Source: Flavobacteriales bacterium
GTDB taxonomy: Bacteria > Bacteroidota > Bacteroidia > Palsa-965
Direction: 5' to 3'
Length of the DNA stretch: 64,000 nucleotides
Assembly: GCA_040377305.1 (NCBI GenBank)
Contig: JBEIPA010000023.1
Location: forward strand, 1 to 64,000
The notes below the pieces were generated by a model, which worked only from the letters and a program-made list of their open reading frames with translations, was not told the DNA's origin and made no database searches. Position 1 is the stretch's first letter, and each line of letters opens with the position of its first letter. Positions 48,189 through 56,946 of this stretch are shown here, one piece after another. The translations under genes were made by a program, and so were the position numbers.

Positions 48189-48242
48189 CACTCTCCTAAA
48201 TTCTATCTCTGATAATTCCTTGAAAGCCATTCTAACTGCACG

Positions 48243-49649
48243 TCACTTGCTCACTGGCATATGAAGCGCAAATGCAACTACAGATTCAGAAGGTGGATTT
48301 GAAGTAAAAAAGTTTACCTTTTCACTCATCTGAACTTTCAATATACCATCCGTTGGGTTTAAATTCTGATTGGTGAAAAGTCCTGCCAGCCGTTGATCCA
48401 GAGATCCTGGCAGTCTACTGACTTTAAACATCAGTTCATTTATGTCGAATTCTGCTCTGGAAAAAATAATTGCAAGATTTTCCTGACTACAGTTTGCGCA
48501 GATTTTCATACTAACGCCATTCCCACTTGCCGGATCCTGATGTGGCACTACAAAAGTATTAGTGAGATCTCGATCCATTAATGGATTTGTAACCTGACCC
48601 AACAAATCATTGAAAGGATAAACGGGCTCGCAGGTACCGTCATTATTTAAAGCAAAAACGTAAACATAACAGCTTGTCGTTATATGCATTCTAAAGAAAT
48701 CACCAGAATGCATTGGTGCTTCAAAATTGGTTGTTTTCACTTCGACTGGTTGAACATGACCGCTTACAAAATCATCATACTCCACGGTTAAACGCGATGC
48801 ACCGATGGTCAATGAAACTGGGACCACTTGACTGTTGGAATACTTCATAAGCTGAAAGCTTCCACTCAACGGGCAACTCAACGTAGATTTCCCAACTCTG
48901 ATTTGGTCAGACCCAACGTAGTAGTGAGTTGGCAAAGGTTGAATAGTGGTCGTTGTTTGAATTGGTAAGCTTACTGGAGCACTAATTCTGGTATTAACCG
49001 GGATAGGCAACTGAACAAGGCTGTTCCACGGTTTCATATGTAGTTGATTGGCGAATAAAGTATTAATACTCGCATTGAGTATACTGAGGTTTTCAAACTG
49101 GTTATGTTCATTCCATGTTTTAATGATATTGACAATCGCGAGCGTGACTTCGAAACCCATCTTGATCATTTCCGGATCAACTGGTCTTTGGTTAAGCTGG
49201 ATGCGATCTGTAACAGGTTTCAGGTTCGTCTCGTAAGCTTCAATAGCTCCTATATAACCAAACGCATATTTCTTTGCAAAATACGTAGAGGAGTCTACGG
49301 ACGATTTCATGCGTTTGAGAGAATCAAGGCAAAGCAGGTCAGCTTTAATCATGTCGACCCATGCATTAAATTTTTGTGAAGTGATTTCGTATCCATTCCT
49401 CAGGGCAAGCCTATCTTCTGCACTCACCTTGTCATTATTTCCAAACTCCGATATCTGTCTTTCTATTCCAGGTTTAAGTGTGTCTCTGTAACCCACAATT
49501 TTGGGTAAATTGTTAACGATAATGATAACGTCCTCAAACGTCACTTTTTTGCCAATAGGTTTTGCTTTGGCTGGATTTGTAAAACAAAAGATAACTCCCG
49601 AAATGACTATCGAAATAAGTAGGAGGAAAGTGGTTTGTTTGATTTTCAT
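48243..49649 (-). CDS. Exported protein with C-terminal DUF4384-like domain
   Basis: Signal peptide; helical N-terminal part; GDFFRMHI..CYVYVFALNNDGT..VYP..ENLAIIFSR pattern typical of DUF4384. Confidence 0.7.
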   Translation of the reverse strand: MKIKQTTFLLLISIVISGVIFCFTNPAKAKPIGKKVTFEDVIIIVNNLPKIVGYRDTLKPGIERQISEFGNNDKVSAEDRLALRNGYEITSQKFNAWVDMIKADLLCLDSLKRMKSSVDSSTYFAKKYAFGYIGAIEAYETNLKPVTDRIQLNQRPVDPEMIKMGFEVTLAIVNIIKTWNEHNQFENLSILNASINTLFANQLHMKPWNSLVQLPIPVNTRISAPVSLPIQTTTTIQPLPTHYYVGSDQIRVGKSTLSCPLSGSFQLMKYSNSQVVPVSLTIGASRLTVEYDDFVSGHVQPVEVKTTNFEAPMHSGDFFRMHITTSCYVYVFALNNDGTCEPVYPFNDLLGQVTNPLMDRDLTNTFVVPHQDPASGNGVSMKICANCSQENLAIIFSRAEFDINELMFKVSRLPGSLDQRLAGLFTNQNLNPTDGILKVQMSEKVNFFTSNPPSESVVAFALHMPVSK

Positions 49650-49654
49650 ACACT

Positions 49655-52162
49655 TTATTTTTTTGTGGGTAATACAAATAGGTTAATCGGATCGTATGAA
49701 TTTCTTCGTGATGATCCGGACTTCTGTTTTCGCGACGACAGGTAGAACACGCCATCCCGGCAATAAAAAGATAGTTCATCGGTATCAAGAATTTCATTTT
49801 TTCGGATAAAATCTGGAGAAAGAGTATCTCGTCCCGCAGAACTATGCGGTAGTTCTTTATTTCCAAACGCCATTAACAATGTCCGCGCTAAAATTCCATT
49901 TTGCAAGCCGGTATCATCAGCCGCGAGTTCATTGGATGAACATGAGGAAATAGTTAAACAGGATGGGTTAATATATCCCGTTGACACCATATTCTCCTGT
50001 ATTGCTGTTTTAATATCAACTTCTGCTGCTTTCGAGTTTAATGCCGTTCCCGAGAAACATGCATCCAAAAGTATAACGGAATTGCAGCCTTTTTGATTGA
50101 TCTCACTCAACAAACGATCGTACGTTATACCAGTCAACTCTGCGCTATTAGCAATGCAATCGTGGGTAATCATACAAAATGCAGACTTTCCTGTTACGGG
50201 ATCATACATTGGTTTACCATGTCCTGAAAAGAAAAAAACTATAACATCATTCGCTTCACATTCTAATTCCCGTATTGCTTTCAGGATACCATTGGTAGTA
50301 GCCTGCGAATCTGTCAGAAGAGTTGTATAAACGTTATCCCAAAGTCTTTGTCCAGATGGTAATAATTCCTGCCTTCCAAAGGCGCTGTCAATTTGCCATG
50401 CATCTTTACTTGCAAAACGTAAATCACGAAAACTATTATCTCGATATTGGTTGATACCTACTGAGATTACAAATAAATTTCGCGTGCTGTCTGGAGGTTG
50501 TAAAAAATGATTTCGTCTATAATCAATTTGCACTTGACGACTCTCTACTACATTGCCACTATTAAATGTAACCAACAACTTTAGTTTGTTCATGTTGGTT
50601 TGCAATTTAACAAAGGCATAAACATCCACATAACCTTCACCATTTAACGAACTCCAACTCAAGCTATCTCTAGTTTGATACTCAACTGTGAGCTTGCTGT
50701 TATCTATAGGTACAATTGCAACTGATTTTATTTCTTCAGTAGTGTATATCCGAGCGACCAGCGAAAATTCGGGTACATCACTCGTGGCAGTTAATGAAGA
50801 GGGATTTAGCCATTTAATCGTGGCGGTTTCGTGTTCAATTGTATTATTCGGTGCTAGGTGATCAAGTAGGTCTTGCTGATAAGTACCTGTAACGATAAAC
50901 TCAGGCAACGGATCCTCATTAATCTCAAACACTAGTTTAAGGTTAGTAGGTTCATCGGTCAATGGCACATCGATCTTCACGGTTTTTGAGCGTTTTACTT
51001 TCTTTCCCAATCGCGAATTGATCTGGCAGGGCTTATCATTAACCGATCCCGCAATATCTTCGTTCGCGTCGATATTATCAATTGTGCCGGTTATACTAAG
51101 TGTTTTTACGCCGCCTTCAATTGTAATGTATGTTGAATCCAAACTAAAAGAAGGACAGCCGGTATAACCTGCCTCATAATAAGGAAGAAGGGAGAAAAAA
51201 CTTCGATATGATTTTCCGCCAACAACGCAATTCATATGAAAAGCACAAGTATCGAACAAGTCATCGTCCATGATAAAATAGAAATTCTCCTGAATAGGGC
51301 TGAATTCAATTTTTGGCGCGAAACTCATGTGGTCACAACCAATCTCCCATTTTCCTAGAACATATCTCCCGTTGAAATTAAATGTTGGCGTGAAATATTT
51401 GTTAAAGTGCATGAAGCACCCTAGTGAAGATTGACTTGGGAGAAACGAAAAAAATAAAGGTTTGTTCTGATAAAATTTGACTTCAATTGAGTAAGTAGCA
51501 ACTTTTGCATTACGCCGAATGGCAAATGCTGGAGTACAATTGAATGGGCGCATAGTACGTTCAGAATAATTCAAATCGCAATTCCCATTCAACGTGTTGT
51601 AACCATCTAAAATAGTATCACGATAATCGGCCGAGATATGAACATTGATATCTGAAATGTTGTCATTGTTTAAGTCATAAAATATATCGTAATGACCCTC
51701 CGCTACGATTTCATTTACACCAAATAAGAATATCTTCTTTCCAAAAAGTTCTCGTGCTCCAGGACTCTCAGCCTTAATTGAGAGCTCAACTACGCTTTTG
51801 ATTGCATCTATTTTGTGATCCGTTGCTTTGTAATCAAAACTAAGAATAGTTTCTTCATTGATTTTATCAATTGACTTCGCCCTAGTTCCCCAGCGTCGAT
51901 CCCAGAATACCGGATGCCACGTGTTGCTATTGCTTATAACCCATTCTGAGGCAGACGTGTTGAGGTTTAACACAGCGCGATCATCATAGTGCAAGGCATA
52001 TGAGTTAGTGGAATCAAGAATACAACCCTTCGGCAAATATGAATCGTCTGAATTAACGATCGTCTTCTTTACCGAAGTCTTTATCTGGGAAGAATTGATT
52101 TGTGCATTGACAATGTTAACAAATACAAGTGCAAGCACGGTTGCTGCAGTTCGCATTCTCAT
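49655..52162 (-). CDS. Secreted caspase-family (peptidase C14) protein
   Basis: Signal peptide; FVISVGINQY..LRFASKDA, VFFFSGHG (catalytic His), ILLDACFSG (catalytic Cys); TATATTTG -7 box at 52188-52195. Confidence 0.9.
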   Translation of the reverse strand: MRMRTAATVLALVFVNIVNAQINSSQIKTSVKKTIVNSDDSYLPKGCILDSTNSYALHYDDRAVLNLNTSASEWVISNSNTWHPVFWDRRWGTRAKSIDKINEETILSFDYKATDHKIDAIKSVVELSIKAESPGARELFGKKIFLFGVNEIVAEGHYDIFYDLNNDNISDINVHISADYRDTILDGYNTLNGNCDLNYSERTMRPFNCTPAFAIRRNAKVATYSIEVKFYQNKPLFFSFLPSQSSLGCFMHFNKYFTPTFNFNGRYVLGKWEIGCDHMSFAPKIEFSPIQENFYFIMDDDLFDTCAFHMNCVVGGKSYRSFFSLLPYYEAGYTGCPSFSLDSTYITIEGGVKTLSITGTIDNIDANEDIAGSVNDKPCQINSRLGKKVKRSKTVKIDVPLTDEPTNLKLVFEINEDPLPEFIVTGTYQQDLLDHLAPNNTIEHETATIKWLNPSSLTATSDVPEFSLVARIYTTEEIKSVAIVPIDNSKLTVEYQTRDSLSWSSLNGEGYVDVYAFVKLQTNMNKLKLLVTFNSGNVVESRQVQIDYRRNHFLQPPDSTRNLFVISVGINQYRDNSFRDLRFASKDAWQIDSAFGRQELLPSGQRLWDNVYTTLLTDSQATTNGILKAIRELECEANDVIVFFFSGHGKPMYDPVTGKSAFCMITHDCIANSAELTGITYDRLLSEINQKGCNSVILLDACFSGTALNSKAAEVDIKTAIQENMVSTGYINPSCLTISSCSSNELAADDTGLQNGILARTLLMAFGNKELPHSSAGRDTLSPDFIRKNEILDTDELSFYCRDGVFYLSSRKQKSGSSRRNSYDPINLFVLPTKK

Positions 52163-52523
52163 AAGTGATGTTTGATTCAGGTGAATTCAAATATATAAAT
52201 AGAACTCATATTAATAACTCATCTACGCTTAATTTATTATGTTACCAAACTACTTGTCGAGTGAGACGATGTTAACGAGTCATAAAATCTTGTCACAATC
52301 AAGTTTCGTTTATAATAACGCGATCATCGATAGGTAGTTCGTCAATCTCAGTTAATAGCCAGGTATAAATATTGCTTTTCCGGTTCCTGAATTAGGCAGA
52401 TGCTCATGCCCGAGATAACTCAAGAAATGACGCGGAAGATTTTGACCAGATTCACTCCATCAAATATCAATGGCAAGTAGCAATCTGCTTAAGGTGTAAC
52501 TATTTTCCGATATTTACTCCACC

Positions 52524-55029: not shown

Positions 55030-56946
55030 TTAGTCTTCCGCGAGAACAATAATCTTGTCGACCTCTTTGTAAGCAACCTTCGCCGATTTCTTCGGATTCA
55101 CAACCACACCGTATGCCTTGTCAGCATTCTGAGCGTGTTCAACTACACGATATCCGATTGCCGTTTCTCCACGATTTGCTGCCGCTTCAATTACGGTGTA
55201 GAAATCAACTGGTTTGCCCACCTGAACGTAGTCTTTCATGTCACGAATGTAAATTTCAGATCCTTCAGAACGGAATAGATCTTTGAACACTTTCTCGAGA
55301 TGTTTGTTCTCCGATATCTGAGAGAGCAGGAGAGACACCAACTTGTCGCTCACAATAAAGTCGTCTGCCTTCGCGATCTCTGCAAGAGCTCTGTTACGCA
55401 CATCTCGCATTTCGCTGACAATGCTGAGGTTAACATCGTTCTGTTCTGCAATGTTGCGCAAGTGGAGGAGAGTAATCAATACTTCTGCATCAGCTTCCTG
55501 CACTGGCTTTTCGTTCGAGCAGAGAATAATAATGTGGTCGTATGATTTTACATCTACGCCATCCAAAATGTTACGTTCAGTAATAGCTGCGTTCAAATAG
55601 GTCAGCTTCTGTTTACTCAATCCTGCTTTCAAGGCGTTCGCTTCGGCTTCAGAAGTAGAAACGTCAGATACCACAAGAATCTCTGATCCCATACCAACGT
55701 AGTTATCCAACTCGTTGATGATCATCGAACCTTTTTCGTTCCAACCCAACACGATTGTCTTTTCTTTACCGGCAACAGCACGCTGACCATTACGGATGTT
55801 CGCCACATCAGCTTTAGGAGCAGCAGTTGTGCTTGGAATCAATGACTCATCGTCTTCCGTAATTGCAATGATCTGATCGCCTTTCTTAATTATTGTGTCC
55901 ATTGGTGGATTGATCATCACGGTACCATCGGCAGCCATAAAGCCCATCACAGCGGAATCTTCGTAAGCATCAATAACCTCACGGTACGTTTTCCCTGTGA
56001 GTTTTGTCTCTTCCTTAAAGTAGATTTCTGCACCGTCGAAGTCCATGAGCTCGGTGTAAACCACTGAAAGTCCGGACTGACGACAAGTTTGTGCCGTCAC
56101 ACGTGCAATCAGGTCAGAAGAGAGGATGAGAGAAGTTTCGTGTCCGCCAACCAATTCTCCGGCTTCCATATTCTTCTCTTCACGCAACTCTGCAACGATG
56201 TGGTAATCTTCCTTGTGGCGATCAGGGTTGTTCGTCAACGCAAGAATAGACTTGATTACGTATACATCCGGCTGATCAGCTTCTTCCGGAGAAACGATGA
56301 TAATTGATTTCGCTTCGTGCGGGTTAGCCACTTTCAGGTCATCAAGATCGAGTGGGCTACCAGTACGGCAAATCACTTTTGTGTTTTTTGTGTTCGGAAA
56401 CTTGGAACGGATTTCATCTTCCATTTCAACTTTATCGCGATCAGCCATAATTACAATGCGAGGCTTTTTCTTATTCTCATTCGCAATTAACAATTCAGAA
56501 ATGATCGTGAAAATTTTCGGAGACCATCCCAGAATGAGTGTGTGATTTGACTCGAGGACTTTTGACTTTCCTTTACGCATTTCATCAATTGCACCTTCCA
56601 TACCAGAAGTGATTGTACCGATAAGTGTAGAGACAATGAAAATACCTCCAACTGTAACCGTCAATGCAACCCCACGAATGATCCAGTCTGCGCCGGTAGT
56701 TTCGCCCGGAGCACCATCTCCGGCCATATTCCCCGCATCGAACGTACGCATTAGAGAATTCCATGCTGCCTCAACCCAACTGTCACTGCCATCATAAGAG
56801 GTGCCCGTAATAAATACAACCGTTCCGGCAACAAGTACGATTACAAGTGAAACAATAGCGAGCCATCCGATAATAGCAACTGGTCCAGAAGACAACGTGT
56901 TCTCAAACGAGTAACGCATCTTTTCTTTGAATGAAGGTCCTGACAT
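55030..56946 (-). CDS. CASTOR/POLLUX-related putative cation channel
   Basis: RYSFENTLS, pore region RTFDAGNMAGD, KGKSKVLESNHTLILGW, QTCRQSGLSVVYTELMDFDGAEIY, two RCK-like halves. Confidence 0.9.
   Translation of the reverse strand: MSGPSFKEKMRYSFENTLSSGPVAIIGWLAIVSLVIVLVAGTVVFITGTSYDGSDSWVEAAWNSLMRTFDAGNMAGDGAPGETTGADWIIRGVALTVTVGGIFIVSTLIGTITSGMEGAIDEMRKGKSKVLESNHTLILGWSPKIFTIISELLIANENKKKPRIVIMADRDKVEMEDEIRSKFPNTKNTKVICRTGSPLDLDDLKVANPHEAKSIIIVSPEEADQPDVYVIKSILALTNNPDRHKEDYHIVAELREEKNMEAGELVGGHETSLILSSDLIARVTAQTCRQSGLSVVYTELMDFDGAEIYFKEETKLTGKTYREVIDAYEDSAVMGFMAADGTVMINPPMDTIIKKGDQIIAITEDDESLIPSTTAAPKADVANIRNGQRAVAGKEKTIVLGWNEKGSMIINELDNYVGMGSEILVVSDVSTSEAEANALKAGLSKQKLTYLNAAITERNILDGVDVKSYDHIIILCSNEKPVQEADAEVLITLLHLRNIAEQNDVNLSIVSEMRDVRNRALAEIAKADDFIVSDKLVSLLLSQISENKHLEKVFKDLFRSEGSEIYIRDMKDYVQVGKPVDFYTVIEAAANRGETAIGYRVVEHAQNADKAYGVVVNPKKSAKVAYKEVDKIIVLAED

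Follow-up and report, generated by a model that had tools for sequence, protein, structure and literature searches.

A protease gene and its neighbour at a variable junction

The 64,000-nucleotide (nt) stretch analysed here, called the window, is positions 1 to 64,000 of contig JBEIPA010000023.1 (assembly GCA_040377305.1) of a Flavobacteriales bacterium. On its minus strand lie two open reading frames (ORFs) 5 nt apart, 52162-49655 and 49649-48243, arranged as a sequence-only reading of this DNA had described them. The former encodes a caspase-like protease of family C14; the product of the latter, here called the partner, combines a signal peptide, a helical domain (H), a linker and a DUF4384-like domain (D). 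Together, they make up a genuine module of minimal size, a caspase with its partner, which was inserted recently and whose partner domain has no name.

48189..52523, no strand: insertion of low guanine-cytosine (GC) content between a flavin adenine dinucleotide (FAD)-oxidase gene and a VOC gene, from the GC profile and congener loci
49655..52162, minus strand: gene of the C14 caspase-like protease, 835 amino acids (aa), from ORF and Pfam
48243..49649, minus strand: gene of the partner, 468 aa
52188..52195, minus strand: predicted promoter with a Bacteroidota-type -7 box, TATATTTG, 26 nt before the protease ATG

The pair has a GC content of 0.393 against 0.451 genome-wide, and 0.6% of 4,974 equal-sized genome windows are as low. 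At third codon positions (GC3) the two genes reach 0.34 and 0.38, versus 0.45-0.52 in seven neighbouring genes: both overall and third-position GC bear out the AT-richer islet proposed earlier. Among 19 congener VOC loci, the FAD-oxidase gene lies at most 300 nt from the VOC gene in 13 (12 of 18 leaving out G012), at 1.35 kb in one, and not within 1.5 kb in five; none of the 19 holds a match to the protease or the partner. A protein search finds the partner in none of 24 congeners, G012 included, and the H profile has no match in 34 other genomes of the same family (again with G012), 22 of which are at least 90% complete. There are no flanking repeats of note at the insertion.

Thirteen of the 19 congener loci have nothing at the junction, so the insertion is recent. 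The closest congener, G015, carries two other genes at the same place, unrelated and on the minus strand (212 and 188 aa, L218:1460-2708), so the FAD-oxidase/VOC junction takes variable cargo. The gene pair, flanked by housekeeping-type genes, is a recent arrival at a variable site, in agreement with the horizontal acquisition suggested before. The pair's supposed own -7 box holds as to its place and not as to its pattern: the window contains the 8-mer 38 times where chance alone would give 45, which leaves only its position in favour of the predicted promoter. Its assignment relies on what we take to be the Bacteroidota -7 consensus.

Architecture and relatives of the two proteins

The protease can be divided as follows.

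52103..52162, minus strand: predicted signal peptide 1-20, then Gln (VNA/Q), by eye from the sequence
50819..52102, minus strand: N-terminal region 21-448, candidate sensor, fast evolving and with no assigned domain
50513..50818, minus strand: immunoglobulin (Ig)-like pre-caspase domain 449-550, aligning with the domain that precedes C14 in many neighbours
49667..50482, minus strand: C14 domain, with His648 (50219-50221), Cys702 (50057-50059) and acidic D587 and D700

Pfam Peptidase_C14 (PF00656) covers residues 568-769 (E 1.8e-11, 44.6 bits against a cut-off of 21.4). The catalytic dyad, SGH648G and DAC702, is intact as first read, and both H648 and C702 are invariant in 44 aligned rows. Acidic residues of the D587/D700 type have a pocket role in metacaspase structures. 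Here they fall on D143 and D256, both invariant in our C14 alignment (A7), and, judged by meta- and orthocaspases, point to the cleavage after Arg or Lys that had been expected of the enzyme. The basic-residue specificity of orthocaspases comes from acidic pocket residues (PMC8283722). By profile, the nearest solved structures are GSU0716 (3BIJ), AtMC4 (6W8S), yeast Yca1 (4F6O) and MALT1; sequence searches with the protease and with the H profile gave no useful PDB match.

Of the roughly 550 N-terminal residues first described as unrecognised, residues 21-448 (about 430) remain so in a PDB sequence search, the ESM Atlas and an alignment to neighbour C14 proteins. Residues 449-550 are a common Ig-like domain, whose counterpart at locus L042 matches Pfam Glucodextran_B; we therefore rejected the notion that an N-terminus free of WD40 and TPR repeats is wholly unknown. 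It does contain cysteines, nine in residues 21-555, three of them conserved in P0005. The latter is the one full-length relative found (45% identity), next to a 134-aa N-terminal fragment; its identity to the protease is 136/446 over residues 1-448 versus 239/384 over 449-835. Five further C14 genes occur in the genome, at G000:C30:116414-122419 (three clustered), C50:146700-150233 and C24:22744-24519.

The partner has the following parts.

49563..49649, minus strand: predicted signal peptide 1-29 (AKA/K), from sequence and family alignment
49014..49562, minus strand: H domain 30-212, predicted helical bundle without a Pfam family
49173..49193, minus strand: family site 1 (R155-P156), loop leading into an amphipathic helix at about 160-180
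48246..48869, minus strand: D domain 261-468, predicted Ig-like beta-sandwich, common to papain-/M43-type proteases elsewhere

Both proteins begin with signal-peptide-like sequences, as predicted by eye. The Gln after the predicted cut of the protease fits the Bacteroidetes Q-rule (PMC10653852), and AQ occurs within residues 11-45 in 34 of 42 partner-family rows. Pfam and NCBIfam give no C-terminal sorting domain of type IX secretion on either protein, so that 'secreted', apt inasmuch as both starts look exported, probably means periplasmic.

The partner has two close relatives (60-62% identity). A search with the single partner protein as query gathered 47 more distant ones, most of them complete proteins of 420-500 aa. 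DUF4384 (PF14326) scores below threshold at residues 319-398 (E 0.014, 15.9 bits against a gathering cut-off of 27), hence our 'DUF4384-like' for D: the similarity noted earlier is there, below the Pfam cut-off. Matches at E<=0.01 appear in 2 of 42 family rows, and a related D protein at L148 reaches 27.8 bits. In the ESM Atlas the partner has only sub-0.9 DUF4384 leads, and a first metagenome scan gave no relative. A match in G030 was dropped for its internal stops. A single-sequence H search of 401 genomes yielded five weak matches outside the own genome; the two inspected are glycosyltransferase-like and were dropped.

AlphaFold2 with 42 family sequences models the partner with a confidence score (pLDDT) of 80.7: helices at 38-211, a disordered linker and a beta-sandwich at 262-467. 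The single-sequence fold, at pLDDT 33, is unusable. For H, in a wide structure search that covered mainly partner residues 36-186, the fold matches are talin (Z 8.1, root-mean-square deviation (rmsd) 4.1, 125 residues aligned), THATCH (7.5) and ClyA-family chains (6-7.4); for D they are Ig-like, with filamin at Z 6.6 (rmsd 2.7, 97 aligned), and none stands out. Foldseek against the PDB lists nothing at E<=0.001, and gasdermin is not listed. Pfam, NCBIfam and PADLOC have no family for H, a helical domain without a name that turns up repeatedly next to papain-type proteases and caspases. In the openly readable literature searched, we found no description of it or of an exported pair.

The H profile is matched in 48 of 301 genomes of family f74 and in 9 of 400 class genomes. 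We assembled 78 H loci: 58 regions (62 f74 places), 11 from class genomes, 7 from family f85 and 2 from metagenomes. A C14 gene lies within 5 kb at 42 of them, a papain/D protease at 52 and either at 58. The background for C14, estimated from five genomes with 92 matches over 46.1 Mb, is about 0.026. These counts are descriptive and carry no test, since the samples are rich in kin; they agree with the co-conservation of the partner family with C14. Eight of ten H+D fusions, L217 being counted among them by inspection, lie within 100 nt of a C14 gene, one is 2.1 kb away and one is without. The usual gene layout is H, papain+D, C14. D is also found at the C-terminus of papain-type proteases (25 of 400 phylum genomes matched, nearly all over D only) and attached to M43-like proteases. 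The profiles used found no papain+D gene elsewhere in the genome. The pair is best read as a pared-down version of a broader Bacteroidota cassette, made of H, a papain- or M43-type protease carrying D, and C14; here H has been joined to D, and the second protease is no longer present. A stand-alone novel system, the candidate put forward by the sequence-only reading, the pair is not. The partner family is patchy and mobile in distribution. P0004 and P0005 are probably a second linked pair, at 45-60% identity to the own pair: their linkage is deduced from the longest contig shared, 4,107 nt, which would just hold both genes (3,954 nt).

Other arrangements were seen. Stand-alone H proteins (L097-L150, L061-L066, L039) mostly have [IVMQ]-D-G at site 1, not a basic residue, and often long low-complexity or Lys-rich tails; tandem pairs occur in L102, L109, L122 and L124. 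In an H+D clade with non-basic tags such as G/A-D-[QML] (L147, L148, L152-L154), an M43-like metalloprotease with D adjoins in four loci, and the clade has possibly switched to another protease. In family f85 (L039, L064, L065), H comes with repeated M48-like peptidase and FGE-sulfatase genes and papain+D, and the fetched stretches hold no C14. From L217:10711 onward, a 610-aa C14 beside an H-containing protein has a short amphipathic C-terminus after K-A-L-P, a segment resembling the helix that follows H site 1. Outside the insertion, a minus-strand 638-aa membrane protein at window 55030-56946, found at the same place in G015, presumably resembles a CASTOR/POLLUX-type ion channel.

A tag common to protease and partner

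Two seven-residue segments connect the proteins.

50678..50698, minus strand: protease tag S489-KLTVE-Y495, sequence match to the partner
48777..48797, minus strand: partner tag S285-RLTVE-Y291, family site 2, on a predicted beta-hairpin

The match S-[K/R]-LTVEY, taken over five registers, is reached by none of 40,000 shuffles of the protease and by one unrelated ORF among 2,169 genome ORFs of at least 300 aa. In the six frames of the genome, [RK]LTVEY occurs twice, both times in this pair, and KLTVEY is present in both proteins of the second pair, P0004/P0005. When the site heptamers of 17 hand-picked loci are compared with the C14s of 58 loci, the own protease ranks first for its partner (0.91 against 0.65 for the next). 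Near-verbatim matches to the own C14 occur in 6 of the 17 loci and in four tag dialects, the three others being shared within L042, L043/L044 and L143/L144. At L042 (1178-9351), an R-G-L-[KT]-[VI] tag stands in three tandem C14 genes and in the papain+D gene. A test blind to the protease places 12 of the 63 D proteins among the top 5%, against 3.2 expected; the mean rank is 0.40, and the own pair is one of the four best.

The partner family has three loop sites, each a basic, a small or acidic and a hydrophobic residue; site 1 lies in H, sites 2 and 3 in D. Across 42 H+D proteins, compared over 22 columns in which Arg and Lys are both frequent, the Arg/Lys state of these distant sites agrees (phi 1.00, 1.00 and 0.93; next pair 0.61), and their columns need the fewest changes (3, 3 and 4 against 4-9). 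In a 19-row Lys clade, the lone Arg at each site belongs to the same row, P0033, with Arg in one of 12 control columns there. The Arg/Lys state is mostly clade-bound; in a third clade, each of the three sites reads G/A-D-[QML].

As both proteins carry the same seven-residue tag, it points to a protease-substrate relation in which the partner is likely the protease's own substrate. The sequence-only reading had proposed such a module, and the shared tag and the conserved C14 linkage suggest it at the level of sequence. We consider it about an even chance (roughly 0.5) that the protease recognises S-[K/R]-LTVEY and cuts after the basic residue in itself and in the partner. Both chains would cross the inner membrane by Sec and remain periplasmic, where the variable N-terminal region of the protease would sense an envelope signal. 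Self-processing in the Ig-like domain would turn the protease on; the partner would then be cut on the D-domain hairpin and remodelled, freeing or unlocking the helical H bundle as the output.

Several observations weigh against cleavage at the tag. The match was noticed by eye before its test was designed, and 11 of the 17 loci, including all eight other H+D loci tested, are without an own-C14 match; several of the protease-blind matches lie outside the tag, and related proteins do not count as independent. Over whole proteins, the ungapped BLOSUM score is ordinary (276 of 300 shuffles). In the protease, the tag falls on a structural strand of the Ig-like domain, and the place where relatives have their tag corresponds better to R498-DSL, just after the own tag. 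On the tree, the concerted Arg/Lys choice gives only two independent pairs, both concordant (p 0.5). In the own partner, site 1 has Pro after its Arg, site 3 is missing, and site 2 is without a small or acidic residue after the basic one; with one residue lacking there, S285 falls in the family's basic column. Most stand-alone H proteins, too, are without a basic residue at site 1.

The tag may instead be a docking strand that is not cut. The partner would then act as an adaptor, a scaffold or a decoy inhibitor, keeping the protease (plus the papain-type protease in the full cassette) in a complex or switched off. We find this possible, if on the unlikely side. Like an adaptor, D occurs joined to M43 and papain proteases and, in other settings, to caspases (PMC8283722); the tag is modelled as a beta-strand, and the conservation of the residues that follow the basic one goes beyond what a plain P1 site would require. 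The Arg-Pro of site 1 is consistent with docking, as is the clade that keeps G/A-D-[QML] and no basic residue while its neighbouring C14s look ordinary. Yet the strict, concerted choice of Arg or Lys at three loops fits a specificity pocket, and the post-Cys loops of neighbouring C14s mostly carry [RK]-[GADS]. Quite improbable, to our mind, is that the partner is a pro-toxin: a cut would lay bare the amphipathic helix that follows site 1, and membrane pores would form from the H bundle. The target would be the infected cell itself, killed from its periplasm, or else a predator or competitor. Site 1 does directly precede the most hydrophobic amphipathic helix of H, the distribution is patchy and mobile, and EACC1, Pepco and gasdermin offer precedent (10.1101/2025.11.14.688446). 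The ClyA-family pore formers among the fold matches would suit it as well; for helical bundles, however, a Z under about 13 is nothing unusual, and the bundles of talin, THATCH and chemoreceptors reach similar values. PADLOC matches the caspase domain only, the flanks are of housekeeping type, no secretion tail is found in Pfam or NCBIfam, and site 1 is Arg-Pro here and non-basic in most stand-alone H proteins.

Least probable of all is that the genes are remnants of a larger cluster of envelope proteases, transferred together, with no mutual action and a seven-residue match due to chance. At 20 of the 78 H loci, a few of them on short contigs, no protease of either kind lies within 5 kb; many papain+D genes occur by themselves, and the junction holds different cargo in the closest congener. 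But the two genes are intact with only 5 nt between them, a second contig probably has them linked as well (at 45-60% identity), and the tag statistics (0/40,000 shuffles, rank 1 of 58 loci) speak against chance.

Should the preferred reading, cleavage at the tag, hold, the partner would give a directly testable target for the poorly understood envelope proteases of bacteria. Many Bacteroidota genomes carry numerous caspases with signal peptides and no known substrate or trigger; in five genomes, C14 matches number 6 to 32 each. The minimal pair names a candidate substrate and a candidate scissile bond in both proteins, and the natural Arg, Lys and non-basic variants of the family suit a swap comparison. 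A wider proposal, which we hold to be speculative and unlikely as a whole, is that H+D proteins are a new class of extracytoplasmic protease-activated effectors: an envelope caspase would read an operon-specific tag, whose dialect would co-evolve with the enzyme and insulate paralogous caspases, and the cut would unlock a membrane-active bundle in a caspase-papain cascade for defence or antagonism in Bacteroidota.

Comparison with known systems

With bacterial orthocaspases and metacaspase-like C14 proteins, the protease has in common the His-Gly and Asp-x-Cys dyad, acidic residues for a basic P1 and accessory N-terminal domains. It differs from orthocaspases in its signal peptide, its 430-aa N-terminus, the Ig-like domain before the catalytic one and its tag-matched neighbour. 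DUF4384 is an accessory domain of cyanobacterial orthocaspases (PMC7475262, PMC8283722), and one class of C-terminal domain in Csx30, the substrate of a caspase-like protease (10.1101/2022.08.17.504292).

The Csx29-Csx30 couple likewise joins a caspase-like protease to a neighbouring substrate with a helical N-domain, a linker and a beta C-domain; Csx30 is cut in a hairpin of its C-domain (10.1101/2022.08.17.504292), and the partner's candidate site is also on a predicted D-domain hairpin. In contrast, Csx29 is a cytoplasmic, RNA-triggered CHAT-type protease that cuts after Met (same source). We recognised no CRISPR genes, RpoE or Csx31 at the locus, and H matched the N-domain of Csx30 in none of the searches run. 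Type III-E membership, marked by Cas7-11, a CRISPR context and a TPR-CHAT protease, is rejected: the protease is a C14, the flanks are FAD-oxidase and VOC genes, and PADLOC gives only its caspase model. Membership in Csx30 and in type IX cargo was likewise rejected.

The protease-effector defence modules (EACC1-caspase, Pepco, MBL, alpha/beta-hydrolase, bacterial gasdermin) are also two-gene, mobile and patchy, with a protease and a non-enzymatic neighbour (10.1101/2025.11.14.688446). Both proteins look exported here, whereas the main text of that paper does not contain 'signal peptide'; the papers cited do not describe the protease-effector modules characterised so far as exported. The partner matches none of the five families and we recognised no phage sensor; EACC1-caspase is rejected, the caspase_w_EACC1 model NF047832 scoring 59.7 bits against a cut-off of 140 and the partner having no EACC1 match in Pfam.

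There is also a likeness to the Bacteroidota cassettes of papain (C1)+DUF4384 and caspase, for which we found no paper. They have the D domain, a C14 neighbour and, as a frequent third member, H. The present pair differs from them in that H and D are fused, that there is no papain-type protease, and that its tag dialect is unique to the lineage.

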